32,000 nt of DNA from Microcystis aeruginosa NIES-843 (GTDB taxonomy: Bacteria; Cyanobacteriota; Cyanobacteriia; Cyanobacteriales; Microcystaceae). The DNA lies in NCBI RefSeq assembly GCF_000010625.1, contig NC_010296.1, positions 30,001-62,000 of the forward strand. Direction: 5' to 3'. Below the pieces are notes generated by a model. The model did not search any database. It saw nothing but the letters and a program-made list of their open reading frames with translations, and was not told the DNA's origin. The first letter of the stretch is position 1; every line of letters begins with the position of its first letter. Both the position numbers and the translations under genes were made by a program. Shown in pieces: positions 2,286 to 32,000 of this stretch.

Positions 2286-2335
2286 GTCTTGTATAATTCT
2301 TATTATATAAAGATTTCGAGCATTGAGCGGTTACT

Positions 2336-2419
2336 GGAGAAGCACCGGGAGCAGAGGAGAGGGGGAGCAGGGGAGCAGAGGTTGTTTATCTTCTGGGTAC
2401 CCCTTTTCCTTGATTCACC
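2336..2419 (+). repeat. Purine-tract/pyrimidine-tract element, copy a (GGAGAAGCACCGGG...CCCCTTTTCCTTGAYTCAC)
   Basis: Recurs at 2856-2937 and 4125-4188. The purine run can pair with the downstream CCCCTTTTCCT. Confidence 0.6.
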
Positions 2420-2457
2420 AGAGAATTTTCTTCCGGAAATTTAAGCTGATCAGAGCT

Positions 2458-2518
2458 AAACTTAACAAAACTTCACAAAAACTTCACAAAAACTTCACAA
2501 AAACTTCACGGAAAACTA
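2458..2518 (+). repeat. Five phased ~11-bp A-tract repeats (CTTCACAAAAA and variants)
   Basis: Tandem units read directly from the sequence, immediately 5' of the TTGACG hexamer. Confidence 0.8.
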
Positions 2519-2552
2519 TTGACGAGAAGATGTCAAGGCCGCTTAATTAAAT
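2519..2552 (+). promoter_or_regulatory. Putative promoter of precursor gene 1
   Basis: TTGACG is a -35-like hexamer. An AT-rich TTAATTAAATTAATTAA block 17-19 nt downstream offers several -10 candidates. TTGAC/GTCAA inverted repeat. GGAGGA RBS at 2567-2572. Confidence 0.35.
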
Positions 2553-2580
2553 TAATTAACATCATTGGAGGATTTACCCC

Positions 2581-2766
2581 ATGAAAACCAAAAAACTGAC
2601 ACCCCGCAATGCTGCTCCTGTGCAACGGAAAAATACCGCTACCGTCTCTCGTGATGGCAATGCGATCATTCAACTTGATTGGGGAACTTTTTGTGTGCAA
2701 GAGGATGGGGAGGGAAATTGTAAAGAGTGGTACGAACTGCCGTTTGCGGGAGACGACGCAGAGTAA
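2581..2766 (+). CDS. pirE: Cyanobactin precursor peptide 1 (PirE/AcyE-like), 61 aa
   Basis: MKTKKLTPRNAAPVQRKNTATVSRDGNAI leader, then a variable region ending in Pro, then the C-terminal FAGDDAE macrocyclisation signal. A strong RBS precedes it. Confidence 0.85.
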   Translation: MKTKKLTPRNAAPVQRKNTATVSRDGNAIIQLDWGTFCVQEDGEGNCKEWYELPFAGDDAE

Positions 2767-2855
2767 TCTGCCCGATTCTAGCACGAACCTCAAATCAGGT
2801 CAAAAGTCTTTTTCTCCTTGCCAAGGCGCACGGTTGCTTCCTTGTAATTGACGGT

Positions 2856-2937
2856 GGAGAAGCAAGGGGTCAGGGGAGAGAGGGAGCAGGGGAGTACAGG
2901 TTTTTGCTCTTCTCGGTTCCCCTTTTCCTTGACTCAC
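2856..2937 (+). repeat. Purine/pyrimidine-tract element, copy b
   Basis: Homologous to 2336-2419 and 4125-4188. Followed by TTGACT-N17-TTAGAT. Confidence 0.6.
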
Positions 2938-3057
2938 GGGTGCTAGAAGACTTAGATTCAGGGAGATAAACCCGAAAATCTGTTAAAAATATAAGATGCT
3001 AAAAAGTCTGCGCTATAATACTCGATTAGGATGATATAAAGGTAATCAGGAGAAGCG

Positions 3058-3342
3058 ATGAACACTATCCAACTGACACCAGAAATAGAAGATTTGATTG
3101 CTCAACAAATTAAAACAGGAAAATATCAAGATGATTTAGCCGTTATTCAAGAGGGATTGCGTTTATTGGCAGAAAGAGACAGAATTTACCGAGGAAGATT
3201 TGAAGAATTGAAACGGGAAGTTATGATTGGCGTTGAGGAATTAAGACGACAGGAAGGAATTAATGCCGAAGAGGTTTTTTCAGAATTAGAAGAGGATTTA
3301 CAACAAATAGAGGCTAAGGGTTTCCCGATGAGTCAGAAATAA
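3058..3342 (+). CDS. parD: ParD-like antitoxin
   Basis: 94 aa, with MNTIQLTPEIEDLIAQQIKTGKYQ...GLRLL typical of ParD. Its stop overlaps the start of the ParE gene (ATAATG). Confidence 0.7.
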   Translation: MNTIQLTPEIEDLIAQQIKTGKYQDDLAVIQEGLRLLAERDRIYRGRFEELKREVMIGVEELRRQEGINAEEVFSELEEDLQQIEAKGFPMSQK

Positions 3343-3638
3343 TGTCAAAGATTATTTTCTCACCCTCAGCTAGATTGGATTTAAAGCAAGTTAATAGTTA
3401 CTTGGCTGGGAAAAATCCGCAAGCTGCTAGAATTTTAAAAGAAAAAATCCAACAGGCTTGTAAAAAATTAGCTAAATTCCCCAATCTGGGACGTAGGCGC
3501 GATGAGTTAATCCCTAGATTACGAAGTTTTCCAGTAGAAGATTATCTGATATTTTATTTCCCTCTTGAAAACGGAATTGAAATCGCAAGAGTAGTCAGTG
3601 GATATAGAGATTTAGATGCTATGTTTGATGTTGATTAA
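3342..3638 (+). CDS. parE: RelE/ParE-family toxin
   Basis: 98 aa, with FSPSARLDL...FPNLGRRRDEL...YLIFYFPLENGIEIARVVSG typical of ParE. Confidence 0.75.
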   Translation: MSKIIFSPSARLDLKQVNSYLAGKNPQAARILKEKIQQACKKLAKFPNLGRRRDELIPRLRSFPVEDYLIFYFPLENGIEIARVVSGYRDLDAMFDVD

Positions 3639-3728
3639 GAAAGCGATCGCATCAATCTAAGGGTGTCATTCTTCCCTGCTACCCAGTAGCATCGGCTGGG
3701 GGTTTCTTCGGGAAATTTAAGCTGATCT

Positions 3729-3779
3729 AAACTTAACAAAAACTCAACAAAAACTTCACAAAAACTTCACAAAAAACTA
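3729..3779 (+). repeat. Four phased ~11-bp A-tract repeats
   Basis: CTTAACAAAAA, CTCAACAAAAA, CTTCACAAAAA, CTTCACAAAAAA, directly 5' of TTGACA. Confidence 0.8.
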
Positions 3780-3814
3780 TTGACAAGAAGATGTCAAGGC
3801 CGGTTAATTAAATT
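3780..3814 (+). promoter_or_regulatory. Putative promoter/operator of precursor gene 2
   Basis: Perfect palindrome TTGACA-AGAAGA-TGTCAA (3780-3797), followed by the TTAATTAAATTAATTAA block. GGAG RBS at 3828. Confidence 0.35.
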
Positions 3815-3841
3815 AATTAACATCATTGGAGCATTTACCCC

Positions 3842-3997
3842 ATGAAAACCAAAAAACTGACACCCCGCAATGCTGCTCCTGTCCAACGGGAAAACACCGC
3901 TACCGTCTCTCGTGATGGCAATGCGATTGCGATGATCGCTCCGCTTTGGGATTTGGTAAGGTGGGGCGCTCCTTTTGCGGGAGACGACGCAGAGTAA
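3842..3997 (+). CDS. pirE: Cyanobactin precursor peptide 2, 51 aa (absent from the ORF track)
   Basis: Hand translation: MKTKKLTPRNAAPVQRENTATVSRDGNAIAMIAPLWDLVRWGAPFAGDDAE. The leader differs from copy 1 at one residue. Confidence 0.85.
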   Translation: MKTKKLTPRNAAPVQRENTATVSRDGNAIAMIAPLWDLVRWGAPFAGDDAE

Positions 3998-4124
3998 TCC
4001 CCCTGATTCTAGCACGAACCTCAAATCAGGTCAAAAGTCTTTTTCTCCTTGCCAAGGCGCACGGTTAGCCTCAAGGAATTGACGTACAACCCTAGTTAAT
4101 TCGGGAGTTTCGGATACCGGGCAC

Positions 4125-4188
4125 GGAGAAGAAGCACCGGGGGCAGGGAAGCAGTTTCTCTTCTCGGTTCCCCTTTTCCTTGACTCAC
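4125..4188 (+). repeat. Purine/pyrimidine-tract element, copy c
   Basis: Homologous to copies a and b. Followed by TTGACT-N17-TTAGGT. Confidence 0.6.
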
Positions 4189-4345
4189 GAGTGTTAGAAG
4201 ACTTAGGTTCAGGGAGATGAACCCCAGCCAACAGCTTACTACCCCAGTGTGATCGGGTTGGGGTCTTCTTCTCCTTCGGTTTGTACCTTTGACAGAATTA
4301 GATGAGCTATGATTAAAGTAAGATTTACTTATTCATACATCACAA

Positions 4346-7709: not shown

Positions 7710-8279
7710 ATGTTAATCACAAAACCCCGCTTTCAAACCTTTGCCGAATATCTACAATATGAGGATAATTCAGAGGAATCTTATGAATTATTTAACGGAG
7801 AATTGGTAGAAATGCCACCAGAATCAGGACTTAACTTTCAAATTGCTAATCGTCTTTTTCTAGTCTTTGCTTTAATGCTAGGAACCGATAGAGTCAGAGG
7901 ACATGGTTTAGAATTAGAAGTGAGAGGCGAACCGAAAAACCGTTATCCTGACTTAACCATTATTCGAGAAGAACATATTCAATTACTCTCCCAGAGAAAT
8001 ACGATTCTTCTTTCCATGTCACCCCCCTTATTAGTCCTTGAAGTGGTTAGTCCGGGGGAAATCCAAAGAGAGAGAGATTACATCGCCAAAAGAATTCAAT
8101 ATCAAGATTGTGGGATTCCCGAATACTGGATCGTTGACCCCCAAACTCAAACCATTTTAGTCTTAGAATTAAGAGGAAATACTTATACAAAAATCGGTAA
8201 TTTTAGCAATGATGACTTAGTAAAATCTCCTGGATTCAAAGAATTAAACTTAAAGGTTTTTGATGTATTTAATTCTTAA
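7710..8279 (+). CDS. Uma2-family (DUF820) endonuclease
   Basis: PPLLVLEVVSPGEIQRERDYIAKRIQYQDCGIPEYWIVDP is the Uma2 core. Confidence 0.75.
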   Translation: MLITKPRFQTFAEYLQYEDNSEESYELFNGELVEMPPESGLNFQIANRLFLVFALMLGTDRVRGHGLELEVRGEPKNRYPDLTIIREEHIQLLSQRNTILLSMSPPLLVLEVVSPGEIQRERDYIAKRIQYQDCGIPEYWIVDPQTQTILVLELRGNTYTKIGNFSNDDLVKSPGFKELNLKVFDVFNS

Positions 8280-8625
8280 TTTTATCGGTTAACCCAAGAA
8301 TTAAAAAATGATGAACGGCTTAACTATTCCCGGATTAAAAGAACTACAAAAACAAACGAAAGGCGCATCAGAAATAACCGTCGCCATTCTTGATGGTGTA
8401 GTTGATACCGACCATCCCTGCTTCAATGGGGCAGACCTAACCCGTTTACCCACCCTCGTCCAGCATCAAGCCACCGCGGGGCAAATGTCCACTCACGGAA
8501 CCCATATTGCCAGCCTCATCTTCGCACAACCCAATAGCGACATCCAAGGTATTGCCCCCCAGTGTCGAGGCCTACTCGTACCCGTCTTCTCCGACGATAA
8601 CCGTAAACTCTCCCAACTCGATTTA
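8222..8625 (+). repeat. 404-bp direct repeat, left copy (Uma2 3' end + intergenic + first 106 codons of pirA)
   Basis: Matches 13087-13489, with one indel in an A-run and a few substitutions. Confidence 0.9.
8308..8625 (+). pseudogene. pirA: Orphan 5' fragment of the PatA-type protease gene, truncated by an IS
   Basis: Identical over 106 aa to the start of 13172..14089. After 8625 the ORF reads into the IS terminus (LDFGQRKTDL...). Confidence 0.85.
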
Positions 8626-14224: not shown

Positions 14225-15222
14225 GGGTCTGCTGAAAAAGTTTTTCCTAGGGGCAGGGTGTAGGGTGTGGGGTGTGGTGCGATTCGTTGGCTAGAAACTA
14301 GACAGTAAGACGTTTAGAGGATTAGCCGCTTGGTAAATGTAGTACCTTGATAACTTTATAACCCTACAGGTGCGGGTTAGTAATAACCTTAGTCCTGTCC
14401 TCTAGATGCCTAGAGTGACGGCATTTCCTGCTGCTTTAGACTTGGTACATCTGAGGTAGTGAGCGAGGAAAAAAAAGCGGTATCTGATAGCCTAAATCAG
14501 AAACCCGTTGAGCCAGAACCTATGGATAGCCCTGGGGCGAAGATACGAATTAACCATCGTCAACACCCACGAGCCAAAAGGCTGACAGGCTCGAAACAAA
14601 AGTTAACAGAGTTGGGGCTGATAGCTCATACCACTATCAGTAAGGCATTCCCGTTACTCTGTTGTGGACAGTATCATCCTAAGGGTTCAACCAATGGTTA
14701 TAGGGAACGAAGTAACCCTGATTGACTCTGCCCGTTCGGGGCAGTAGGAAACCATCCGCAAGTCAATAGAGGGAGAGGATGTCCTTAAAAGCCAAGGCTT
14801 TGAGTAATATCAAAGATATGCTGACAAAGGACGGGTAACTAGGAAGTCTAAGCAACAATCAACGGTCATATACGCCCTAAAACCAACAATCTTGTCTGGT
14901 GGGGATACAGCCAAGAGGGTTGAATAGACAAGGAAATAATAATTCCCATTATTATTCTACTAATGACAGTAGCCTAGTTACTCAGGAGCCGGATACGGCG
15001 AAAGTCGTAAGTCCGGTTTTGAAGCAGGGGGTGGGAAGGCGACTTCCTGCTCTACTGTAACGGGTGTGGGGTTTGACCGATTTTGAGGGGGTCAATTACC
15101 TAATTTTCAGGGAAAAAGTCCCTGAATTTACCCCTGATCACTCCCATATCTGGTACTTTTTGAGGGGAAAAAAGTCCAAAAGTCTTATCCAACAAGGTTT
15201 TTAGATTTATTCAGCCAGCCCT
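14225..15222 (+). mobile_element. MITE (about 213 bp) carrying a group II intron
   Basis: Ends GGGTCTGCTGAA ... TTCAGCCAGCCCT. 5-bp TSD ATTTA (14220-14224 and 15223-15227). Same family as 27072-27496. Confidence 0.75.
14277..15061 (+). ncRNA. ORF-less group II intron (785 nt)
   Basis: 5' GUGCG. Domain V at 14986-15019 (GAGCCGGAUACGGCGAAAGUCGUAAGUCCGGUUU) has the AGC triad, a 2-nt bulge and a GAAA loop. Domain VI has a bulged A 7 nt upstream of the last intron nucleotide. The EBS1 loop CAUACC (14627-14632) and EBS2 ACACCC (14563-14568) complement the 5' exon GGGUGU-G-GGUGUG. Confidence 0.8.
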
Positions 15223-16404
15223 ATTTAGGAGGATTATTAGGGGAAAGTGAGAGGAAAAACCTCACTCAAATGGCCAATAATGCCGTCGGAGTAGTTTATA
15301 ACCGATTACATCACTTTTTGACCGAATCTCCCTGGTCAGACCGTCAGGTGAATGAATGTCGGTTGCAAGTGATGAACCAATGCCGCCAGACGCAAATCCC
15401 CCGAGGATTTTCCCTGATTGTCGATGACTCAGGACATCGAAAAAGTGGCAATCTGACCGCCGGAGTTGGCAGGCAGTACCTAGGAGAAATTGGCAAGACA
15501 GACAACGGAATAGTCGCCGTCACTACCCATCTCTACGACGGCAAAAAAAGTGTCCCCCTAGACATTGAAATTTATCAACCGGCTAGTTCCTTAGCCGAGG
15601 GGAAAGAAGACAAAGAATTTAAGAAGAAACCAGAGATAGCGATAGATTTAATTGACCGGAGCTTAACCAGAGGCTATCGACCGAAAATCGTCTTAATAGA
15701 TGCTGGTTATGGCAACAACACAAATTTTCTCAAAGCCCTGGAAGAAAGAAAGCTAAAATACTTAGGAGGATTGGCAAAAAATCGAAAAGTAATTATTGAA
15801 AAAGAAGGGGGTGTGGAAGAAACAATCCAGCTTGAGCAACTAGCAAAAAGCCTATCAGAAAAGGATTGGGAGAAAATCACCCTAAATCTAGATAAAGAAA
15901 AAACGGTTTGGGTAGCGGTATTCAGAGCGAAAATATCTCAACTAGAAGGAGAAAGGAACTTGGCGATCGTCATGAATGCAAGTTCAATGGAAAAAGCCAC
16001 AGAGGTGGACTATTTCATCACCAATGTAGTTGAGGCAGATACAGTAACAGCTTCGTGGATAGTGAGGACTTACACCGAAAGAAATTGGGTGGAAGTATTC
16101 TACCGAGAAGCCAAAGGATGGTTAGGGTTAAGGGAATATCAAGTCAGGGATAAACGAAGCTTACTTCGTCATTTTATCCTGGTGTTTTGTGCCTATACAT
16201 TTATCCTGTGGCATAAGTTAACTGGGGGATTGCAAAGGCAGTGGGCGAATCGACCTTTAAACACTTTTGTGGAAGCCTTGGAAGCTTTTCGGACAGCGAT
16301 GTCTTTCCGTTTCTTTGAGTGGCTGACCGAGAATCGGGATGTGTTTGCCGCTTACAAAGCCAGTTTAGGCTTTGTTTGGGCTTGAAATTTGTTTAAGTCC
16401 CAAT

Positions 16405-20139: not shown

Positions 20140-22235
20140 ATGCCTGATCTCAATGCTATCCCCGGAATGACCGCTCTTCGCTCCCAGACAAAAGGCGATC
20201 CACGCATCAAAATCGCCGTTCTTGATGGACCGATTGACTTAGATTGCGCCTGCTTTCAAGGAGCAAATATTACCCGCCTTGATCCCTATTGGTCGCAAGA
20301 ATTTCCCATCGATCCGCAACACTTACAAGCCTTTTTAGATGTAGAAAAAAGTGCCAAAAGTGATGAAGAAAAAGGTGATATGTTGAAAGAAGCGATTCCC
20401 GATGAAAACATCCTCCAGAGTTTGCATTTGCGCTTCCATGCTAACCATATTATCAGCACCATTTGCGGCCAGCCAGATTCACCTGTAGAAGGGATTGCTC
20501 CTAACGCTACTGTAATTAATATTCCCATCGCCTATAGCAACGAAGATTTTATTAATCCCCTCAATCTTTCTCGCGCAATTAGTACCGCTATTGAACAGGG
20601 AGTTAATATTATCCATTGTGCCGCTTGTCATCCAACTCAAAGCGGATAGCTCACGAATTTATTGATAAAGCAATTCGTCAAGCTCAAGCTAATAATATCC
20701 TGGTGATTGCCCCCGGAGGTAATGATAAGGGAGAGTGTTGGTGTGTTCCTGCGGTATTAGAAAATGTCCTGGCGGTGGGAGCGATGAAAGATACAGGCGA
20801 GCCATTTAAATTTAGTAATTTTGGTGGTAAATATGCAACTCAAGGGATTCTCGCTCCAGGAGAGAATATTTTAGGCGCTCAACCCGCAACTGATGACCCC
20901 ATTCGCAAAAAAGGGACTAGCTGCGCCGCTCCCATTGTGACAGGAACAGCCGCTTTATTGATGAGTTTACAATTAGAACAGGGTTTATCTCCTGATGCTG
21001 AAGCAGTAAGGGCCGCCTTGATTAATAGTGCCATCCCCTGCGATCCTAATGAAGTAGAAGAACCAGAACGCTGTTTATTAGGAAAAATTAATATTGCGGG
21101 TGCTTATGAACTGCTGACGGGAGAGAAATTACAAACTGTTGAAGCGGATAACAATTTGTCGAATAATATCATAGAATCGGCGGTAATTCCGATGACAGTG
21201 ACAACCTCGGTTATCCCATCTAATACAACCGAGATGGCGACTCAGGGAATAACTATAACCCCCCCAACAGCAGCGACAATAGAACTGGCGATCGCTCCTA
21301 GCAATGCTTCAGAAAATGTTTCCTCAACTGGATTAATACAAAATAATCAAACAAATAAAAATATTGTCTTTAATAGTGTCGTTCCTAGTCAACGTTCAAA
21401 CCTCGTTTATGTGTTAGGAACTTTAGGTTATGACTTCGGAACAGAAGCGCGTCGGGACACCTTTAAACAATTAATGCCAAGCATCACGATCGATAATCTT
21501 GAATTACCATCCAATCCCTACGATGCGCGGCAAATGGTAGATTATTTAGAAAGTAATCTATCAGAAACTAAGTCTTTAATTTGGACAGTCAATTTAGAAC
21601 TAACTCCCATATATGCGATTAAACCAGTGGGAGCTTTTGCCGCCGACATTTATCAAGTCATCCAATATATGTTAGCGGGTCAAATATTACCAGAATCTGA
21701 CGAAGATTATGTGGAAAGGGTGAGTATCCCCGGTATGCTGACCGAGGAAACTGTGAAACTTTTTTCTGGTCAAATTGTTCCCGTCATCAAGGTTAATAGT
21801 CCCAGGGGAATGTATGGCTGGAAAGTTAATACTTTGATTGAATCAGCGCTAGAAACTGTTAGCGCAGAACATGAAATCGCCGATGAAGCGAGGATGCGGC
21901 GTTCTCTGACCAGTTTCTTGAATCGCATTTATTATGACTTACGCAATGTCGGACAAATCGCCCGGGATCGCGCTTTAAATTTTGCAGCTACTAACGCTTT
22001 TCAAGCTGTACAAACCTTCTCCCAAGCAGTAGCGCTGGGAATGGAACTACACAGCATTGAAGTGGAAAAAAGCCCTTTTTGTCGCTATGGTAGTGAATGC
22101 TGGGATGTGAAATTAAAATTCTTCGATCCCGAAAATGGTCTGCGGGCCAAACGAGTTTTTCGCTTTACCATTGATGTCAGCGATCGCACCCCTGTAACTT
22201 TAGGTGAAGTGCGTTCTTGGGCTGTTTCTAAATAG
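20140..22235 (+). pseudogene. pirG: PatG-type cyanobactin macrocyclase (subtilisin + capping insert + C-terminal DUF), no oxidase domain, 1-nt frameshift near 20645
   Basis: Two overlapping ORFs, 20140-20649 and 20616-22235. HCAACHPTQSG* continues in the -1 frame as IAHEFIDKAIRQAQANNILVIAPGGN...GTSCAAP. This matches recalled PatG (NIIHCAFCRPTQTSEGEEILVQAIKK...). Confidence 0.85.
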
Positions 22236-22289
22236 CCTGAGTCTGCTAAGTAAGTAGTTATAATTAAATTGAAGATAGATTTTGCCTCT

Positions 22290-22367
22290 GATCCCCCCTG
22301 CCCCCCTTAATAAGGGGGGTGCCGATAGGCGGGGGGATCCCCCCTGCCCCCCTTGATAAGGGGGGTG
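22290..22367. repeat. Two 32-bp GC-rich palindromic repeats (GATCCCCCCTGCCCCCCTTRATAAGGGGGGTG) separated by 14 bp
   Basis: Each contains the hairpin CCCCCCTTRATAAGGGGGG. They lie just 3' of pirG and may act as terminator(s). Confidence 0.6.
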
Positions 22368-22525
22368 TCTGACAACTTTTAACACCTACCTACTTAAGTA
22401 CCTAAGCAAAATTGATTAACCAATAAGGCCAGGGTTAACTTGTCAAAATTGTACCAAATGTACTTAGCAAAAATGTCGCTCAAATTCAATTATAATTAAC
22501 TTCTTATTCAAAATTTTAGTTAATT

Positions 22526-23551
22526 ATGCGTTACAAACTTTTAGGTAATAGTGGTCTGCGAGTTTCCGAACTATGTCTAGGAACGATGACATTCGGGCAA
22601 GATTGGGGTTGGGGGTCGGATAAAGAGGAAAGTCGGGCGGTTTTTCAGGCTTTTGCGGAAGCGGGGGGCAATTTTCTCGATACGGCCAATATCTACACAA
22701 ACGGAACCAGTGAAACATTAGTGGGGGAATTTGTCAAGGGCGATCGAGAAAAATGGGTAATCGCCACGAAATATTCTCTCAACACGCGCCCCGGCGATGT
22801 CAATGCTTGCGGAAATCATCGAAAAAACCTCTTTCAAGCGGTAGAAGCTAGTTTAAAGCGTTTAGGCACTGATTACATCGATTTACTCTGGCTTCATATT
22901 TGGGACTCTCTCACTCCTATCGAGGAAGTGATGCGCGCTTTCGATGATTTGGTCAGGATGGGAAAAGTCCTTTATATTGGCATTTCTGACAGTCCTGCTT
23001 GGATTGTCTCTCAAGGGAACACCCTGGCCACCCTACGGGGATGGACACCCTTTATCGGACTACAAATAGAATATTCTCTCAAGGAACGCACCCCCGAACG
23101 GGAATTATTGCCCATGGCCAAAGCATTAAATATCGGGGTGACAGCTTGGAGTCCCCTGGGAGGAGGAGTTTTAACGGGAAAATATAATCAACCCAACCCC
23201 GTCGATGGTCGTTTAAGCATGACCGACCAACCTTTTCAAATTCTCGATCGCGATCTGAAAATTGCCGAGACCGCCCTAGAGATTGCCAGAGAAATCGGCA
23301 AATCACCGGCACAGGTGGCGTTAAATTGGCTCAGAAATCGCCCTAACTCCGTAATTCCCATCATTGGCGCTCGAAAATTGTCCCAATTGCAGGATAATTT
23401 AGCCTGTGTGGACTTTAACCTGACTGGGGAACAGCTGCAACGACTCGATAATATCAGTGCCATTTCCCTCGGTTTTCCCCACGAACTTTTAGCCAGTCAA
23501 TTTGTTTGCGATATCCTATTAGGAGGAGTAGCAGCACAATTGGATCGATGA
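22526..23551 (+). CDS. Aldo/keto reductase
   Basis: MRYKLLGNSGLRVSELCLGTMTFG...DTANIYTNGTSE...IDLLWLHIWD are AKR family motifs. Confidence 0.85.
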   Translation: MRYKLLGNSGLRVSELCLGTMTFGQDWGWGSDKEESRAVFQAFAEAGGNFLDTANIYTNGTSETLVGEFVKGDREKWVIATKYSLNTRPGDVNACGNHRKNLFQAVEASLKRLGTDYIDLLWLHIWDSLTPIEEVMRAFDDLVRMGKVLYIGISDSPAWIVSQGNTLATLRGWTPFIGLQIEYSLKERTPERELLPMAKALNIGVTAWSPLGGGVLTGKYNQPNPVDGRLSMTDQPFQILDRDLKIAETALEIAREIGKSPAQVALNWLRNRPNSVIPIIGARKLSQLQDNLACVDFNLTGEQLQRLDNISAISLGFPHELLASQFVCDILLGGVAAQLDR

Positions 23552-23955
23552 TGGAAGTCTTTGTTTATGGAACCCTGAAACCCAAGGAAAGTAACTATTC
23601 TGCCTACTGTGCAGGAAAAGTGATCAACTCTAAAACCGTCTACACAAGGGGGCATTTATACCATCTTACCGCCCTCGGTTATCCCGGACTGACCGAGGGC
23701 GAGGGCTGGGTGAAAGGAATTTTATTGACTTTTAACGCAGATTATGATCTGGGGCTTTTGGATGGTTTGGAAGATTATCAACCCGGCAGAGATGCAGAAG
23801 AAAACGAGTATCAGCGTCGCAGAATTCCTATTTATAATCTAGAGCGAGAATTAATCGGCGAAGCTTGGGGATATATGATGACACCGGCAAAAATAGCTTT
23901 TCATGGCGGTATTTGGCTGCCTTCCGGTTGGTGGACCAGTAGCGATCGAGAATAG
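23548..23955 (+). CDS. Gamma-glutamylcyclotransferase-like (AIG2/GGACT family) protein
   Basis: MMEVFVYGTLKP...GYPGL...E motif. The start is chosen at the ATG overlapping the AKR stop (ATGATGG). Confidence 0.7.
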   Translation: MMEVFVYGTLKPKESNYSAYCAGKVINSKTVYTRGHLYHLTALGYPGLTEGEGWVKGILLTFNADYDLGLLDGLEDYQPGRDAEENEYQRRRIPIYNLERELIGEAWGYMMTPAKIAFHGGIWLPSGWWTSSDRE

Positions 23956-24014
23956 GGATGAGGGGGCCGATTCTGTTAAGATATACAAATTAAAAGCTTA
24001 ATCGTGAAAAAATT

Positions 24015-24215
24015 ATGTATCTACTCCTAGAAGTGGCCAGTGGCAAATTCCCCGTTTATTTTGTGGCAGTTTATGTGGTCGGTTTTCTCGCTGCTGTCAC
24101 CATCGGTTCGATCGCTTGGTACAATTCTAAACGCCCGGTCGGTTGGGAAGATGCCCAAAGACCCGATATTGTCCCCGAAGTGAAGACAGAGGTGGATTCT
24201 GATTCTCAATCCTAG
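24015..24215 (+). CDS. Small single-pass membrane protein, function unknown
   Basis: 66 aa with one hydrophobic helix (FPVYFVAVYVVGFLAAVTIGSIAWY) and an acidic tail. Confidence 0.4.
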   Translation: MYLLLEVASGKFPVYFVAVYVVGFLAAVTIGSIAWYNSKRPVGWEDAQRPDIVPEVKTEVDSDSQS

Positions 24216-24354
24216 AAAAAGGCAGTGATCAGTTATTTTAGCCGTCAGCTTTTTCTCCCTTCTCAGCAATCAGGTTGGTTGGGATTGACCCTTGGCTGCG
24301 GACAAGGGACTAAAGACCTGACTAGGCGGTTATTTCAGGCATTTCCGCCCTTCC

Positions 24355-24473
24355 TGCCGAACAGAAACAGATAAATCAACCAAGGTCGATCGCAAATCGC
24401 TATGATAGAATATTGGGTCTTTAATTTCCGTCCCCTCCTCCTCTTATGAAACTGCCTGTCGTCGCTATCATCG
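24355..24473 (+). repeat. 119-bp direct repeat, left copy (der promoter region + first 9 codons)
   Basis: Matches 29616-29734 with a single mismatch (24469 C versus T). Confidence 0.9.
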
Positions 24474-25795
24474 AAAATTTGGGTCTGAAACCCCGCCGTT
24501 TTACGGCGGCTTTGCTGTTAAATATTAGCACATTTACGAAATATATGCTAAAATATGAGACATGGAAAAAGCCTATTCTTACCGATTTTACCCCACACCC
24601 GAACAAGAGTCGCTATTGCGGCGCACATTGGGCTGTGTAAGATTAGTTTACAACAAAGCTCTCCATGTCAGAACACAAGCATGGTACGAAAAGCAAGAAA
24701 GAGTAGGCTACGCTCAAACTTCTTCAATGTTGACCGATTGGAAAAAACAAGAAGAATTAGACTTTTTAAACGAAGTAAGCTGTGTACCTTTACAACAAGG
24801 GTTAAGACACCTACAAACAGCTTTCACTAATTTCTTTGCTGGTCGTACTAAGTATCCTAACTTTAAGAAAAAACATCAGGGAGGAAGTGCCGAATTTACC
24901 AAATCTGCTTTTAAATTTAAAGACAGACAAGTCTATTTAGCTAAATGCACAGAACCTTTACCTATTCGATGGTCAAGACAAATACCAGAAAGCTGTGAAC
25001 CAAGCACAGTAACAGTCAGATTACATCCATCTGGACGTTGGCATATTTCAATTAGATTTGATGACCCAACGATTAAGCCATTACCAGTAACAGATAAAGC
25101 CATCGGAATTGACTTAGGAATTAGTAGCCTCGTGATTACCAGCGATGGCGATAAAGTATCTAATCCTAAGCATTTTAACAAGCATTATCAGAGACTGCGA
25201 AAGGCCCAAAAAAGCCTTTCTAGAAAACAGAAAGGGTCAAAAAATCGGGAAAAAGCAAGAATCAAAGTAGCCAAGATTCACGCTCAAATCACCGATAGTA
25301 GAAAAGACCATTTACACAAGCTAACCACTCAATTAGTTCGTGAAAACCAAACGATTGTGGTTGAGAATTTAGCCGTCAAGAATATGGTCAAAAACCCGAA
25401 ATTATCTCAGGCAATATCTGATGTAAGCTGGGGAGAAATCACTCGACAATTAGCCTATAAATGCCGTTGGTATGGGAGAAACTACATCGAAATAGATAGA
25501 TGGTTTCCTAGCTCTAAAAGGTGTAGTAATTGCGGGTATATTGCCCTTGAAAATGCCGTTAAATGTTCGAGAATGGGATTGTCCAGACTGTGGGACGCAC
25601 CATGACCGAGATATTAACGCCAGTAAAAATATTTTGGCCGCAGGGCTTGCGGTGTCAGTCTGTAGAGCGACCATAAGACCAGAACAGAGTAAATCTGTTA
25701 AGGCAGGTGCGAAAAATCCTTCGGGAAAGAAGCAGAAACCCAAATCGTGAGGTTTGGGAATCGCCGTCCGTTTTACGGCGGCGAGGATGTCAAGT
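24474..25795 (+). mobile_element. IS200/IS605-family TnpB-only element (IS1341-like)
   Basis: Subterminal hairpins CCGCCGTTTTACGGCGG (left) and CGCCGTCCGTTTTACGGCGGCG (right). It carries only a tnpB gene. An extended -10, TGCTAAAAT, lies at 24546-24554. Confidence 0.7.
24562..25750 (+). pseudogene. tnpB: TnpB (IS605 OrfB) RNA-guided nuclease gene with a frameshift near 25535-25545
   Basis: MEKAYSYRFYPTPEQESLLRRTLGCVRLVYN... The zinc-finger/RuvC-III region is split: CSNCGYI | [35 protein letters not shown] continues in another frame. Confidence 0.85.
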
Positions 25796-26585
25796 AGTCA
25801 TGGAAAATGTTCCTGAAATTTTGAAAGCTTATGGCGGTATCATCAGAGATGAAATTGTAGCACATTTAGAATCTTGGGGTTATCAAGTAGTTACTACTTC
25901 CCTAAACGCCGCTTATTATGGAGTGCCACAAACTCGCTCAAGAGCCTTTTTTTTAGCTAGTCTAGAGCGTTTACCATCCCTTCCCCAAGCAACTCATTCT
26001 GGTGATATCAGAAGTGATTATAAAGCTGTAAAATCTTGGACACAGCTTACTTTACTAGAACCAAATATTGCCCCAGTTACTACTGTTAAAGATGCCATTA
26101 GTGATTTACCTACTTTAGAAGCAGGACAAGCTTATGATCACGAAATTTATACTAGGGAACCCGAGACCATATATCAACAGAAGATGCGTGAGCAAAGTCA
26201 AAAAATTGTTAATCATATTGCCCGTGCTTTAACACCAATTCAAATGTCAAGAGTGCAAATTCTGGCGGAAGGACAAGATGCGAGAGATTTACCTGCTGAA
26301 TTAGCACCGAAAAAACACTATAGCGGGGCCTATGGTCGACTTTCTTGGGATAAACCAGCAAGAACAATTACAAGGTGGTTTTTTCATCCCGGTTCTGGCA
26401 GATTTTTTCATCCGACCCAGAATCGGACAATCACAATTCGTGAAGCAGCAAGATTACATTCTTATCCCGATCATTTTCACTTTTTAGGGACTTATACTGA
26501 TATGGCCTCTCAAATTGGAGAATCTGTGCCACCACTGTTAGGCAAAGTGGTAGCAGACTCTATGGGACAAAATCTTGAGTATTAG
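25794..26585 (+). pseudogene. 5'-truncated DNA (cytosine-5) methyltransferase (motifs VI-X only)
   Basis: ENVPEIL (motif VI), QTRSRAFF (motif VIII), TIREAARLHSYPDHFHF and QIGESVPP (IX/X) are present. Motifs I (FxGxG) and IV (PCQ) are missing. The fragment starts at the IS605 right end. Confidence 0.8.
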
Positions 26586-27727
26586 TTTGGGTTTGTAGCG
26601 CTGCAAAAATTGTCTCCACATATCGATCTATTGTCAGACGAGTTCTCTCAATTCTCAGACGAATAGCGGCAGCGGGGATTGTTCTGCTTCTAAACAACTG
26701 TTTCTGATTTTTGTACCAAACTAACTGAGTTTTGCCAGCGATGCTTCCCTGTAAACCTGCCCCTACTCCCCCAGTTTTTTTATCTATTGCCCATGCCCAA
26801 GAAAAAACATTAGGATCAAGAGGATTAAGGGGGTATTCACAGTAAACATATTCATTGCCCTCTCGGTTTTTTAGCAATATTCCCTCATAGCTGTTGATGA
26901 CATTTTGAGCAGTTTGACTGGAGCGAATCTTCTCGTTCCAGTGTTGAATAATAGCGGTTCCCAGTTGTGCGGGGGAAGATTGCAGATTCAAAGAGGGAAC
27001 CCCAAGTTGAATGGCTTTTTTGATAATATCTGCTCGTTGAATTACGAACAAAAAGGTATTATCTGTAGTTAGGGTCTGCTGAAAAAGTTTTTCGTGGGGG
27101 CAGGGTGTGGGGTGTGGGGTGTGGGGTGTAGGGTTTTACCGATTTTGAGGTAGTCAGTTACCTGGGGTCTGCTGAAAAAGTTTTTCCTAGGGGCAGGGTG
27201 TAGGGTGTGGGGTGTGGGGTTTTACCGATTTTGAGGGGGTCAATTACCTAATTTTCAGGGAAAAAGTCCCTGAATTTCCCCCTGATCACTCCCATATCTG
27301 GTACTTTTGGATTTCAAAAAAGTCTAAAAGTCTTATCCAGCAAGGTTTTTAGATTTATTCAGCCAGCCCTACCTAATTTTCAGGGAAAAAGTCTAGGAAT
27401 TTTCCCCCCGATCACTCCAATGGTAGGCACTTTTTGAGGGAAAAAAAGTCTAAAAGCCTTATCCAACAAGGTTTTTAGATTTATTCAGCCAGCCCTAGTT
27501 AAACTATTCAGTTGTAGAGATTTTAGCGACCAACCACTGGCAGTTTTACTGTCCACTGCATCGTAGAGTAGTTTGCTTCTGCCTAGGGCAGGATCGGATA
27601 AAGGAATATTCTTGATATAATGAAAAATTGCTTCCCAGCTATAATCCTCGATCGAGCCAATCAATGGTGAGGCAATTGCGGCTAGAATGGCCTGCTTTAG
27701 TCTTTTAGTCTCGTCGTTCGTTAACAC
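26560..27727 (-). pseudogene. Putative type II restriction endonuclease gene interrupted by nested MITEs
   Basis: Fragments 27727-27497 (77 codons) and 27066-26560 join in frame once 27072-27496 and one AGTTA copy are removed, giving about 245 aa. The gene is convergent with and overlaps the MTase 3' end. The function is inferred from context only. Confidence 0.5.
27072..27496 (+). mobile_element. MITE nested inside a MITE (outer 27072-27163 + 27371-27496, inner ~27164-27370)
   Basis: Same termini (GGGTCTGCTGAA...TTCAGCCAGCCCT) and the same GGGGTGT heptamer array as 14225-15222. 5-bp TSD AGTTA at 27067-27071 and 27497-27501. Confidence 0.75.
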
Positions 27728-27775
27728 TTAGGGATTCCTCTACGGAATACAAAAATTCACTCATCCTCAGACCTA

Positions 27776-29370
27776 GGGACTTCCAAAAAATAAACTATTC
27801 ATGCTCAAGAATAATAATCATTCTCGGAGTGTAGGAGGTAGGGGTCGATGGTTGCCTCCTCCTTCCAATTTTGTAGTAGAATTAATCCTGTACATTATTA
27901 ATCAAGTTTTTCTTTGTAAGTGTATATGGAATTAACTGATTCCCTCAAGAAATTGCTCAGTGAAACTGCACTTCAATTAAAAGGTGCAGCTAAAAGAAGA
28001 TTCATGGCCCAAACAGTCTTAGAATTAGGCTATGGGGGACAAACCCTTGCTGCACAGGAGTTAGGCTGGAATCGAACTACTATTCGTAAAGGAATTAAAG
28101 AACTAAAAAGAGGTATTATTTGTGTTGATAATCATTCAGCTAAGGGGCGGAAAAAAGCAGAAGAACATTTACCTTTTCTATTGGAAAACATCAAAAGTTT
28201 AGTGGATTCTCAAAGCCAAACTGACCCAAGTTTTAAAAGCCAAAGGCTTTATGTGAGACTGAGTGCGGCCGAAGTCCGAAAGCAATTAATCTCTAAATAT
28301 GGGTACAGTGATGAGGATTTACCGAGCGAGGAAACTATTCGGGTTAAATTAAATAACTTAGGTTATCGTCTGAAAAGAGTCGCTAAAGTTTTACCTCAAA
28401 AAAAATTCCAGAAACCGAGGCAATCTTTGAGGAATTAGCTAACATTAATCGGGAAGCGGATGAAGACCCTACGATGTTACGTCTTAGTTTGGATGCCAAA
28501 GCCCGTGTTAATATTGGACTATTTGATCGAGGAGGTAAGAATAGAATAACTGTCGAAACAAACGATCATGATTTTAATCCGAAAACAACCCTAACCCCTT
28601 ACGGAATATTTATTCCAGAATTTGATGAGTTGTTTTTGTATTTCACTGCCTCCACAGTCACCAGTGACTTTATTGTTGATATATTAGAAGATTTCTGGGA
28701 GTCGGAAAAATCTCGTTTTGAGAAAATTAAAACTTTGATAATTAATCAAGATAATGGACCAGAAAATAATTGGAGACGAACTCAGTTCATGAAACGTATA
28801 GTTGAGTTTTCCCAAAAATATCAAGTTAATATACGTTTAGCTTACTATCCCCCTTACCATAGTAAATATAATCCTATTGAACGAACCTGGGCTGTGTTAG
28901 AAAACCCTTGGAATGGGAGTATTTTAGATGAAATCGAAACGGCTTTGAAATTCGCCCAAACTATGACTTGGAAAGGAAAACACCCGATTGTTAAGTTGAT
29001 TACTGAAACTTATGAAAAAGGAGTAAAGCTTACTAAAAAAGCCATGGAAAAAATCGAAGAAAAAATCGAACGTCTCACAGAATCAACGAATCAAGACTTT
29101 CCCGATTTGGGACAATGGTTTATTGATATCTATTATGATAAGACCTAGTTTGTAGTTAACTAAGATGGTTAGCTAAAAACTGTCTTTGATTCTTTAACTT
29201 GTCCTTGTTATACTCGAAAAAGCTCGGAAGTATAAGAGTTTGTGCTGCCTATTTTTTCGGAAAAATAGGTTGTAATGGGAGACTCTTTGTTTTCCTAGAC
29301 AAAAATAATTACTTTTTCAAAAAAACACTTTTCTATTTTTTTGTTGGGTATTTTATTCTCTGGAAGTCCC
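27776..29370 (+). mobile_element. ISAzo13-like insertion sequence (~1.6 kb)
   Basis: About 20-bp inverted repeats, GGGACTTCCAAAAAATAAA and (complement) GGGACTTCCAGAGAATAAA. Flanking CTA (or TA) duplication. Confidence 0.7.
27920..29148 (+). CDS. ISAzo13-family transposase in two frames (-1 shift within an A8 run at 28398-28405)
   Basis: ORFs 27920-28438 and 28474-29148. Frame 1 reads ...KKIPETEAIFEELANINREADEDPTMLRLSLDAKA upstream of the second ORF. A DDE region is present (INQDNGPEN...YYPPYHSKYNPIERTW). Confidence 0.75.
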
Positions 29371-29554
29371 CTAAAGCATTAGTAATATGACTAAGCACTC
29401 TCACCGATGGACTTTTTAATCCTCGCTCTAGTTGACTGATGTAAGTTCTATGCAGACCTGTTACTTCCGCCAAATACTCTTGCGACCACCCTTTTTCTTG
29501 GCGATAACGCTGTAGCTCTCGTCCTAAAATTTGCTCTAGTTGACCAGATTGCAT
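29333..29554 (-). CDS. XRE-family HTH protein, probable R-M controller (C) protein, with its 3' end replaced by IS sequence
   Basis: KGWSQEYLAEVTGLHRTYISQLERGLKSPSVRVLSHITNAL is a C-protein-like HTH. The native sequence ends at 29371. Excising the IS extends it to about 83 aa (…NALGLRMSEFLYSVEE…), overlapping the putative REase start. Confidence 0.6.
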   Translation of the reverse strand: MQSGQLEQILGRELQRYRQEKGWSQEYLAEVTGLHRTYISQLERGLKSPSVRVLSHITNALGDFQRIKYPTKK

Positions 29555-29615
29555 AACCTGAATTCTAGTCTTTTGTATACCAAAGTTCTACAGACTAAAG
29601 TATTCAATGTCTCAG

Positions 29616-29734
29616 TGCCGAACAGAAACAGATAAATCAACCAAGGTCGATCGCAAATCGCTATGATAGAATATTGGGTCTTTAATTTCCGTCCCCTCCT
29701 CCTCTTATGAAACTGCCTGTCGTCGCTATTATCG
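29616..29734 (+). repeat. 119-bp direct repeat, right copy (functional der promoter and start)
   Basis: See 24355-24473. Confidence 0.9.
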
Positions 29735-31065
29735 GTCGTCCCAATGTGGGCAAATCCACCCTCGTCAATCGTATCGCTGGAGATCAACAGGCGATCGTTT
29801 TCGATCAACCCGGGATTACCAGAGATCGCACCTATCAACCAGCTTTCTGGTGCGATCGAGATTTTCAAATTGTCGATACAGGGGGGCTAGTTTTTAACGA
29901 TGACAGCGAATTTCTCCCTTTAATCCGCGAACAGGCTTTAATCGCCCTAGCAGAGGCAAGTGTGGCGATTTTTGTCGTCGATGGGCAAGGGGGAATTACC
30001 GCCGGCGATCGAGAAATTGCCGCTTGGTTACGACAGCAAAATGTCCCGATACTTTTGGCCGTCAATAAATGTGAATCGGTGGAACAGGGTATCCTGCAAG
30101 CGACGGAATTCTGGGAATTAGCCATCGGTGAACCCTTCCCCATCTCGGCCATTCACGGCTCTGGTACAGGCGAACTACTCGATGCGGTGATTAAATATTT
30201 GCCACCTGCGGCGGAAATTCCCGAAAATGAAGAGATTAAAGTGGCAATTATCGGTCGTCCTAACGTGGGTAAATCCAGTCTCCTCAATGCTTTAACCGGA
30301 CAACAACGGGCGATCGTTAGTCCGATTTCGGGAACCACCAGAGACTCGATCGATACTTTAATTGAACGAGAAGGACAGGTTTATCGGTTAATTGACACCG
30401 CTGGCATTCGCCGTAAGAAGAATGTGGACTATGGAGCCGAATTTTTCAGTATTAACCGTGCTTTTAAGGCCATTCGCCGGTCTGACGTGGTACTATTCGT
30501 CATCGATGTGCTAGATGGTGTCACCGAACAGGATTTAAAATTGGCGGGACGAATTATTGAAGAAGGGCGCGCGGTGGTGCTAGTGGTCAATAAATGGGAT
30601 GCGGTGGAGAAAGACACCTACACCATCAATACTTACACCAAAATGCTCCAAGATCGGCTGTATTTTATGGATTGGGCAGAAATGATCTTTGTCAGCGCCA
30701 TGACGGGGCAAAGAGTCACCAAAATCCTCGAATTAGTCGATATTGCCGCCGAATCTCACCGTCGTCGCGTCAGTACCTCGGTAATCAACGATGTGATCGA
30801 AGAGGCGGTGAAGTGGCACAATCCCCCCACCACCAGGGGCGGAAAACAGGGGAAACTATACTATGGCACGCAAGTATCGAGTCAACCCCCCACGATCGCC
30901 CTTTTCGTTAACGATCCCCAGCGCTTTAATGATAACTATCGCCGTTACATCGAAGGGCAATTCCGGCAACAGTTAGGCTTTAAAGGAACCCCGATCCGCT
31001 TAATCTGGCGCGGCAAACCGGCGCGAGAAGTGGAAAAAACGGTTAATAGAGCCACCAAGGTCTAA
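29707..31065 (+). CDS. der: Ribosome-biogenesis GTPase Der (EngA), tandem GTPase domains + KH-like domain
   Basis: Two P-loops, GRPNVGKST and [17 protein letters not shown] and NKCE/NKWD motifs. 452 aa. Confidence 0.95.
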
Positions 31066-31068
31066 TTT

Positions 31069-31944
31069 ATGGATTTATTGCGAAGTTTGCCCATCGGTCT
31101 TTATCTCGATCAACCGATTACCCGACTACATCAACTAGATGCCCGGGTAAAATTTATCTGGTTAATGGCTTTTTTAGCAGCACCTTTATTAGCTAATCCT
31201 TGGTGGCGTTTAGCTTTGGTGGGATTGTTAATGTTTTTAACCCTGTTAGCTCCTATTCCCCCCCGCGTCTGGCGGCAACAGATGGGCTGGCTGATATTTT
31301 TAGCGATTATCGTCTTTCTGATTACTGCTATCACTCCCGATGGTTTAGCGGTGAGTATTCAGCCGCGTTTACCGGATGAAGGGCTGAATTTACCGCCAGC
31401 AAGTGATTATCAGTATGTTTTATGGGATAGAGGTCGTTTATTTGTTACCCGACGTTCTTTGGAATTAGCAGTGAGAATTAGTACCTTAGTTTTTACTTTA
31501 ATTTATAGCACTAATCTCTTTTTATTGACGACGGCCCCGGAAGAAATTACCGAAGGTTTAGAGAATTTAATGAGTCCTTTACGGCGATTTAATGTGCCGG
31601 TGACGGAAATTTCTCTGACTCTGACCCTCTCTTTGCGCTTTATTCCCCTGGTTTTAGAAGAAGTGCAAAATCTAGCTAGGGCAGTGAGAACTAGGGCGAT
31701 CGATTGGCAAAAATTAGGGATTAAAAAGAGTTTAAACGTCTGGTTAACAGTAGTGGAAAAATTCCTAGATAATTTGCTTTTGCGCGCCGAACAAATAGCG
31801 ATCGCTATGGAGGTTCGCGGTTTTACCAGTCCCAATCAGCATCAAGTACGCTGGCACCAATTACAGTTAAGATGGGCTGATTTGATCGCTTTATTTTTGT
31901 TAATTCCCTTTTGGGCAGCCCGATTAGTTTGGGGGGGTTTATAG
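31069..31944 (+). CDS. ecfT: Energy-coupling-factor transporter transmembrane (T) component, CbiQ/EcfT family
   Basis: A multi-pass membrane ORF with the LTLSLRFIP and ARAVRTRA coupling-helix motifs typical of EcfT. Confidence 0.8.
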   Translation: MDLLRSLPIGLYLDQPITRLHQLDARVKFIWLMAFLAAPLLANPWWRLALVGLLMFLTLLAPIPPRVWRQQMGWLIFLAIIVFLITAITPDGLAVSIQPRLPDEGLNLPPASDYQYVLWDRGRLFVTRRSLELAVRISTLVFTLIYSTNLFLLTTAPEEITEGLENLMSPLRRFNVPVTEISLTLTLSLRFIPLVLEEVQNLARAVRTRAIDWQKLGIKKSLNVWLTVVEKFLDNLLLRAEQIAIAMEVRGFTSPNQHQVRWHQLQLRWADLIALFLLIPFWAARLVWGGL

Positions 31945-31975
31945 CAGTTATCAGTTATCAGTTATCAGTTATCAG
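31945..31975. repeat. Tandem heptamer (CAGTTAT)x4
   Basis: Read directly after the ecfT stop. Confidence 0.8.
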
Positions 31976-32000
31976 ATTTGAGTTTTAAGTGTGCAGTATT

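Follow-up and report, generated by a model that had tools for sequence, protein, structure and literature searches.

Two copies of the der 5' end in Microcystis aeruginosa NIES-843 and the probable decayed restriction-modification unit between them

The insertion of restriction-modification (R-M) genes together with a long target duplication was reportedly described by Nobusato et al. in 2000, and R-M units with long target repeats have been catalogued for 25 years, while the origin of the repeats has not been explained. The locus considered here occupies positions 24355-29734 of a stretch of 32,000 nt from Microcystis aeruginosa NIES-843 (NC_010296.1, positions 30,001-62,000; hereafter the window). 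Here, two copies of the upstream region and first codons of der, a gene whose essentiality is established from other bacteria, flank what are very probably the remains of such an R-M unit.

As set out by Furuta, Abe and Kobayashi (2010; NAR 38:2428, PMC2853133), the class is recognized by an insert that contains both a restriction gene (R) and a modification gene (M), is shorter than 20 kb and holds no other mobile element, by a duplication longer than 30 bp, and by an empty site in a related genome. The same authors report such insertions for all restriction types, call the mechanism unknown while proposing DNA double-strand breakage, state that repeats which extend over a start codon keep the target gene whole, and include one Microcystis case, NIES-843 versus PCC 7806, with 88-bp repeats and an orphan M gene, which is probably another locus. 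This is the literature of Kobayashi and colleagues to which a first-pass annotation of the window, made from the sequence alone, had referred; it is real, and the paper cited above (PMC2853133) covers the pattern. The der locus shows all four operational features, i.e., R and M genes, an ancestral insert of about 2.2 kb, repeats of 119 nt (100-112 nt in relatives) and empty sites. It belongs to the known class of R-M insertion with long target duplication, operationally defined, and resembles the other members in its short insert, which has R and M but no mobility gene, in direct repeats that are about 100 bp long, and in a single copy of the repeat in a relative. As points of difference, the target here is der, an essential gene, and a controller gene (C) forms part of the unit. 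The population also includes genomes in which the left repeat is missing from the der locus and a deletion derivative with C alone; filled sites occur in two upstream contexts, and the repeats have clearly evolved in concert.

We regard it as very probable that the window contains a decayed FspI-like type II R-M unit lying between two copies of the der 5' end, and that this arrangement represents an old polymorphism of Microcystis. The features that define the two ends of the locus are as follows.

24355-24473, plus strand: left repeat copy (P'), comprising the region upstream of der and its codons 1-9; a relic that no der follows
24446-24640, plus strand: spurious 64-codon open reading frame (ORF) that begins at the duplicated der ATG and reads into an insertion sequence (IS)
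29616-29734, plus strand: right repeat copy (P), again the region upstream of der with codons 1-9; the presumed working copy, with TGaTAGAAT, an extended -10-like motif
29707-31065, plus strand: der (engA), intact, 452 aa, with two MMR_HSR1 GTPase domains and a KH-like domain (Pfam)

A repeat search of the 32-kb window returned one family of 119-nt direct repeats, with two copies that are identical at 118 of 119 positions, a start-to-start spacing of 5261 nt and 5142 bp of intervening DNA, in agreement with the first-pass annotation, which had described two copies of the der promoter region and codons 1-9 with one mismatch. The sole mismatch is C at 24469 in the left copy versus T at 29730 in the right copy, and the 42-nt repeat core has no third site in the 32-kb window. 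Each copy comprises about 91 nt 5' of the ATG, followed by codons 1-9. The final 2-6 nt of the left copy overlap the IS target TCAT (24468-24471) and the start of the IS, of which CG at 24472-24473 are the first two bases in all other IS copies; because these last bases are ambiguous, the der-derived stretch measures 117-119 nt. The annotation was thus right that the left copy is fused to the left end of an IS605-type element and that the ORF at 24446 is spurious; the overlap with TCAT/CG refines the end of the repeat. In relatives with an intact unit, the same left-copy ATG opens a 14-codon ORF only, upstream of the M promoter. Within the left end of the IS, a terminator-like hairpin (24493-24509) lies 3' of the left copy, and a promoter-like site is found at 24525-24554. 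An Rfam scan of 22000-32000 at E<=0.1 gave no matches.

The right copy stands before the intact der, as had been annotated, and the corresponding stretch is conserved 5' of der across all Microcystis contexts. Because of this conservation and the TGnTAGAAT motif, the right copy appears to be the working 5' region of der and to contain its native promoter. It would supply der with both promoter and 5' end, so that the essential gene would never have been interrupted; the Der protein of the window shares 99-100% identity with its counterparts in other Microcystis. No gene depends on the left copy, which yields a false der-like start; annotation may thus show an essential gene as interrupted although its function is kept. 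That the duplication itself is an assembly artefact, produced by a collapsed or chimeric join at the repeat, has practically no probability, since it is seen in several complete chromosomes (CP020664, AP019314, a deletion derivative of the CP011339 type, and others), in independent drafts and in metagenomes.

The composition of the original insert is revealed by relatives in which the same repeats enclose less DNA. In Microcystis sp. T1-4 (L006), they hold a clean unit of about 2.2 kb with M, R and C only; M (381 aa) is encoded on the plus strand, R (245 aa) and C (83 aa) on the minus strand, in the layout M promoter, M, convergent R, C and C promoter, with the C gene overlapping the start of R by 23 nt. 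No integrase, recombinase or transposase gene is present among the genes of the intact 2.2-kb unit. Intact units with both repeats, an arrangement referred to as class D, are found in L006, L081, L089, L090 and L094-L098; both repeats also surround the unit in LSC13-02 (L001), with a miniature inverted-repeat transposable element (MITE) at the left junction, and in M. novacekii (L002), where the unit is internally deleted. Where the right end of the unit meets the der upstream region, the junction is identical in every unit-carrying genome, including those of class C, which lack the left copy and are described below.

The M protein is a 5-methylcytosine (m5C) methyltransferase (PF00145), with FSGAGG, PPCQGFS and ENVP visible in the L006 protein, and C is a small HTH_3 protein (Pfam) whose gene lies upstream of R. 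The intact unit therefore has two marks of a type II R-M system with controller, i.e., m5C methyltransferase motifs and a helix-turn-helix (HTH) protein overlapping R. A putative M promoter, TTGACA-17-TAGTAT, ends 6 nt 5' of the M ATG (L006 2515-2560), and a putative C promoter is marked by a minus-strand TAGAAT 7 nt 5' of the C ATG (window 29555-29575). With -10 hexamers that end 6-7 nt before the M and C ATGs, leaderless transcripts are suggested; such transcripts are reported for the controller-protein genes of other R-M systems.

Over 98% of its length, the R protein shows 73% identity to an FspI-named protein of Fischerella muscicola (UniRef; P0034), and Nostocales contain more than 100 homologues with identities of about 70-76%. 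Judged from the 73% identity to the named protein, the unit may have FspI-like specificity, and it shares with the FspI system of Fischerella an m5C methyltransferase partner; unlike that system, R, M and C are all broken in the window. The recognition site of FspI, which we take to be TGCGCA, is absent from the 32-kb window, where 4.0 +/- 1.9 sites are expected. Among 31 related loci, it occurs 0 times in 142 kb of intact-unit loci and once in 167 kb of unit-free loci; TGCGCA avoidance was accordingly rejected as a signature of the unit, since it is genus-wide and independent of unit presence.

These relatives also bear on the origin of the whole stretch between the repeats. The first-pass annotation had seen a single 5.1-kb accessory island inserted at codon 9 of der, with the duplication as the only way in which such an insertion could leave der functional. 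That the intervening DNA is accessory and centred on an R-M unit is borne out by Pfam and by comparison with relatives, which identify remnants of M, R and C, and in the close relatives the two copies were never seen to flank conserved native genes, the contrary arrangement that the annotation had named. A composite island that arrived in one piece, its 119-bp duplication produced by staggered breaks in the same event, would account for repeats that bracket exactly this DNA and for an empty site with the same left flank. However, the same repeats enclose the compact 2.2-kb unit in over 20 other Microcystis assemblies, and in many genomes that unit is clean, free of IS and MITE; the chromosome L087 (AP019314.1) has the unit without both ISs; each IS has its own insertion signature within a unit gene; and the repeats of relatives are 100-112 nt long and not identical. 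We consider a one-piece arrival highly improbable. The ancestral insert measured 2.2 kb, and the claim of duplication at insertion survives for this 2.2-kb unit only. Nor is duplication the only way in which der was preserved, as four assemblies have the unit beside der without the left copy. Since relatives carry the clean unit, the 5.1-kb island is to be read as an R-M unit that was later entered by three kinds of transposable element, the parts of which are listed below.

24472-25793, plus strand: IS200/IS605-family element with tnpB only, inserted 3' of TCAT (24468-24471), with hairpins near both ends
24562-25605, plus strand: tnpB, frameshifted, with its zinc-finger tail in another frame at 25541-25750
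25794-26585, plus strand: 3' two-thirds of the M gene, from about codon 119 of 381, matching positions 106-323 only of the DNA_methylase profile
26560-27051, minus strand: C-terminal fragment of the R gene, 163 codons, colinear with the 245-aa R of L006
27072-27495, no strand assigned: MITE cluster of 424 bp in R at about codon 75, with four copies, of which two have about 93 nt and two about 125 nt; families D2, D4, D5 and D6
27485-27727, minus strand: N-terminal fragment of the R gene, an 80-codon ORF whose start overlaps the 3' remnant of C (27705-27775)
27776-29370, plus strand: ISAzo13-family IS, 1595 bp, with 22-nt terminal inverted repeats (I2), interrupting C at about codon 61
29371-29554, minus strand: 5' part of the C gene, about 61 codons, HTH_3; a 73-codon ORF (29333-29554) runs on into the IS
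29555-29615, no strand assigned: right end of the unit, with the putative C/R promoter-operator region that contains the minus-strand TAGAAT

With all three genes broken, the unit in the window is predicted neither to restrict nor to methylate; the remaining M fragment is without motif I (FSGAGG) and the catalytic PC motif (PPCQGFS). The order of decay can be read in part from L087, a 5.87-Mb chromosome that is the closest relative found (98.8-99.9% identity over the region). There, R contains the MITE cluster, M is intact, and neither the IS605-family element nor ISAzo13 is present, a state from which it follows that R was inactivated first and an orphan M was left. The MITE cluster in R is present in L084 and L087 and absent from L006 and L081. 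It is proposed that the MITEs split R, giving the state common to L087 and L084, that ISAzo13 would then have split C, and that M would have lost its 5' end (codons 1-117) together with the insertion of the tnpB-only element after TCAT. The same MITE families also occur near position 15000 of the window (14945-15227) and downstream of cbiQ in several relatives.

The tnpB-only element looks as expected of its IS200/IS605 group: it encodes TnpB, has subterminal hairpins, left its target unduplicated and lies 3' of a fixed tetranucleotide; no tnpA is present in the window element. The TnpB Pfam matches are OrfB_IS605, HTH_OrfB_IS605 and Cas12f1-like_TNB, the last of which is split across two ORFs, and the IS605-type hairpin repeat constitutes repeat family D7. 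Homology with more than 10 other IS copies covers 24468-25793, and TCAT or TTAT precedes the left end in the copies of the window, L004, L084 and L121. The element is thereby like IS1341-like tnpB-only elements and their MITE derivatives, in its HTH, OrfB_IS605 and zinc-ribbon TnpB, its subterminal hairpins and its TCAT/TTAT target. Its left junction follows a TCAT made by the single T-to-C difference of the left copy, and its right junction, tcaa/gtagtcatgg (the slash marks the junction), falls 3' of a second TCAT when placed on the T1-4 sequence, about 400 bp farther along. The roughly 400 bp between both TCAT sites (T1-4 2506-2909), which carry the M promoter and codons 1-117, are missing from the window. 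Two routes fit this loss: insertion of two IS copies at the two TCAT sites followed by recombination between them, or a single insertion followed by deletion between TCATCG repeats. In L084, the IS is present at the left site and a scaffold gap covers the rest. The ISAzo13 element, which was found in no relative examined, is flanked by a 3-bp target duplication, CTA (27773-27775 and 29371-29373), and is probably inactive, as its DDE_Tnp_ISAZ013 match is split over 27920-28438 and 28474-29148 (Pfam).

Since the left copy abuts the left end of the IS605-family element exactly, the duplication could be ascribed to that element or to ISAzo13, either as a transposase by-product or as der 5' DNA carried along. 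However, the duplication is present in genomes without either IS, ISAzo13 made just the 3-bp CTA, IS200/IS605 elements to our knowledge make no target duplication, and the TCAT target, located where the left copy ends, accounts for the abutment. The chance that an IS made the duplication is therefore negligible, and the IS605-family element, with its frameshifted tnpB, is a later passenger in the unit rather than the cause of the repeats.

The decayed R-M unit between der repeats can be compared with empty sites, for which the upstream neighbours of the left copy are needed.

24015-24215, no strand assigned: psb35, upstream neighbour of the left repeat
24238-24354, no strand assigned: spacer X, 117 nt, between psb35 and the left repeat, matching only psb35-der loci

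The first-pass annotation had predicted an empty site in which the left flank is joined to a single copy and der. This arrangement, psb35-X-P-der with one copy and an intact der, was found in L120 and L125, and L121 shows the same empty site with an IS605-type MITE within X; X is thus also present at the empty sites of L120 and L121. The homology with psb35-EEP genomes stops about 22 nt after the psb35 stop. A second pair is provided by a different context, in which L002 is filled (orf199-P'-unit-P-der) and L003 is its empty counterpart. In other genomes, which lack the unit, an EEP-family gene or glgA comes after psb35, and a DUF4079 gene stands before der. The outgroups (Pannus, other Chroococcales) share neither upstream neighbour of der and cannot polarise the rearrangements.

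Several observations concern these flanks in their own right. The insert in X of L121 (3760-3945, 186 nt) ends with a reverse-complemented IS605-type left end (…GGACGGGGTTTTAACCCAAATTTTCG) beside TTAT, and it is a MITE derivative of the IS family at 24472-25793. The 199-codon orf199 (L003 4284-4883, L002 1-260) stops exactly where the conserved der upstream region starts, its TGA stop lying at about -114, and represents an accessory-looking third upstream neighbour of der. Comparison of L104, L106, L110-L119 and L122-L135 revealed at least three arrangements of the psb35 3' flank (24216-24237 onwards), namely psb35-EEP phosphatase-like, psb35-glgA and psb35-X-der, and this flank looks like a rearrangement hot spot; both sides of the der locus are rearrangement-prone.

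The repeats themselves bear signs of exchange. Over a 100-nt core, left and right copies within a genome differ by a mean of 2.6 mismatches, versus 4.7 for copies between genomes, and L001 and L002 each have private variants that are present in both copies. The length in common is 100 nt in T1-4, 109 nt in L002, 112 nt in L001 and 119 nt in the group of the window, and the copies of relatives, with their 100-112 nt in common, differ at 1-5 positions. Given this concerted evolution, the near-perfect 119 nt of the window is at least partly the product of gene conversion and no frozen record of the original event. The pattern suggests that the repeats recombine, by which the copies within a genome would be homogenised; they could also provide homology arms by which the unit reaches the psb35-X and orf199 contexts, and could excise it precisely.

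The same junction in two upstream contexts, the private variants in both copies of L001 and L002, and the unit haplotypes of the filled genomes, which do not cluster, might instead point to repeated, independent insertion of a site-specific element at the 5' end of der. Against such insertion stand the lack of an integrase, recombinase or transposase in the unit and the class C genomes, which have the unit at der without the junction; furthermore, homologous recombination via the repeats together with gene conversion accounts for the same facts. We therefore regard repeated insertion as very unlikely.

The class C arrangement consists of a DUF4079 gene, a spacer, the unit, P and der, with no left copy and with the same right junction, and is known from four independent assemblies (L008=L093, L091, L092 and L141). 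Its left border reads ...cagcttacTATCG/CTATTATATTTAG (end cttacTATCG), that of the filled sites of class D ...gtcgctatTATCG/CTATTATATTTAG, and der itself ...gtcgctatTATCG/gtcgtcc (end gctatTATCG). Both the class C left border and der codons 8-9 contain TATCG, with 7/8 positions matching; beside the junction, but in a different register, the class C left border and der codons 6-8 also have the 10-mer TCGCTATTAT in common without a mismatch.

Two histories relate these arrangements. In the first, the duplication was made at the original insertion and class C is a derivative that lost the left copy; the module would then have spread to other contexts by homologous recombination through its repeats. 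We assign this history somewhat less than an even chance. In the second, to which about an even chance may be given on comparison of the junctions, the unit would first have resided just upstream of the der promoter, and the duplication would have come from later recombination. The unit and its der 5' DNA would have recombined with an empty-site recipient, on the right by homology (der promoter or 5' end), while on the left the ends would have been joined illegitimately at the TATCG of der codons 8-9; this would yield a duplication without a staggered cut.

In favour of class C first, the required donor (class C) and recipient (empty site) arrangements both exist, diversity is highest among class C units, every class D haplotype has its closest sequence in class C, and T1-4 and L002 carry, beside the unit, class A/C-like der 5' variants that are absent from their empty-site counterparts. 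Homology-facilitated illegitimate recombination during natural transformation has reportedly been described by de Vries and Wackernagel in 2002 and by Prudhomme et al. in 2002; the proposed event would resemble it in having homology at one end (der 5') and a short microhomology, TATCG, at the other. It departs from the expectation of that model in that the longer 10-nt match nearby was not used, and the reverse history explains the same junction.

Three further points weigh against class C first and favour duplication at insertion. The 10-mer TCGCTATTAT is out of register and looks like what is left of a left copy that was lost; the spacer of class C, called L85, is a native repeat that also occurs in L131 and could mark a later replacement of the left copy; and the 19 nt 5' of the right copy resemble the orf199-context allele rather than the DUF4079-context allele. 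The single-nucleotide polymorphism blocks of der/cbiQ and the unit haplotypes are mosaic, and arguments about direction are weak, hints only. Two points bear on the overall reading, whichever history holds: the empty sites could be revertants produced by recombination between repeats rather than virgin sites, and a strict sigma-70 scan of the left copy (24200-24620) found no promoter in the repeat. Taken as a whole, the proposal that the unit first landed upstream of der, and that der-derived repeats then arose which serve as portable homology arms and also allow exit, is put forward tentatively, at rather below even probability; if true and general, it would provide a mechanism for a pattern that has been described yet unexplained since 2000.

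The L85 spacer of class C, about 85 nt long, had also been considered as extra foreign DNA, which would have made class C ancestral; this was rejected, as the same repeat family is found in L131. Members of the family (...TTTGTACTAAAAT...ACGCAGTTTAAAT.CAGTACAGCTTA), preceded by GGGTGT-type runs, occur at the class C left border in L092 (7340-7412), L008, L091 and L141 and at an unrelated position in L131 (981-1040, minus strand), and L85 is probably the end of an undescribed MITE. A look-up of DUF4079 returned one Microcystis cluster representative, in a GT2-DUF4079 context, and revealed no reciprocal junction.

A different derivative is shared by L082, L083, L085, L086 and L088, which have one deletion with identical end points (T1-4 2302-4321; about 8250-8580 in each) that removes the left copy, M and most of R, whereas C and the right copy stay. 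The retention of an intact 83-aa C beside der in 4/5 of these deletion genomes, two of which are complete chromosomes, is a curious case of an orphan controller.

The der locus thereby offers a natural series in which unusually many stages are preserved: the site is empty in three contexts (DUF4079, psb35-X and orf199) and filled, between both repeats, in two of these (psb35-X and orf199); other genomes show a filled site that lacks the left repeat, a controller-only deletion derivative, or decayed copies. With this series, the mechanism of duplication, the spread by recombination and the order of decay become testable.

Elsewhere in the window, a gene for a PatG-like subtilisin/cyanobactin protease (20140-22235) is split into overlapping ORFs of 169 aa and 539 aa, both here and in L087, while it is whole (698 aa) in L081, L088, L094 and others. 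By comparison with these whole genes, the copy in the window is probably a frameshifted pseudogene within a cyanobactin-type cluster, with Uma2 and DUF5840 neighbours.

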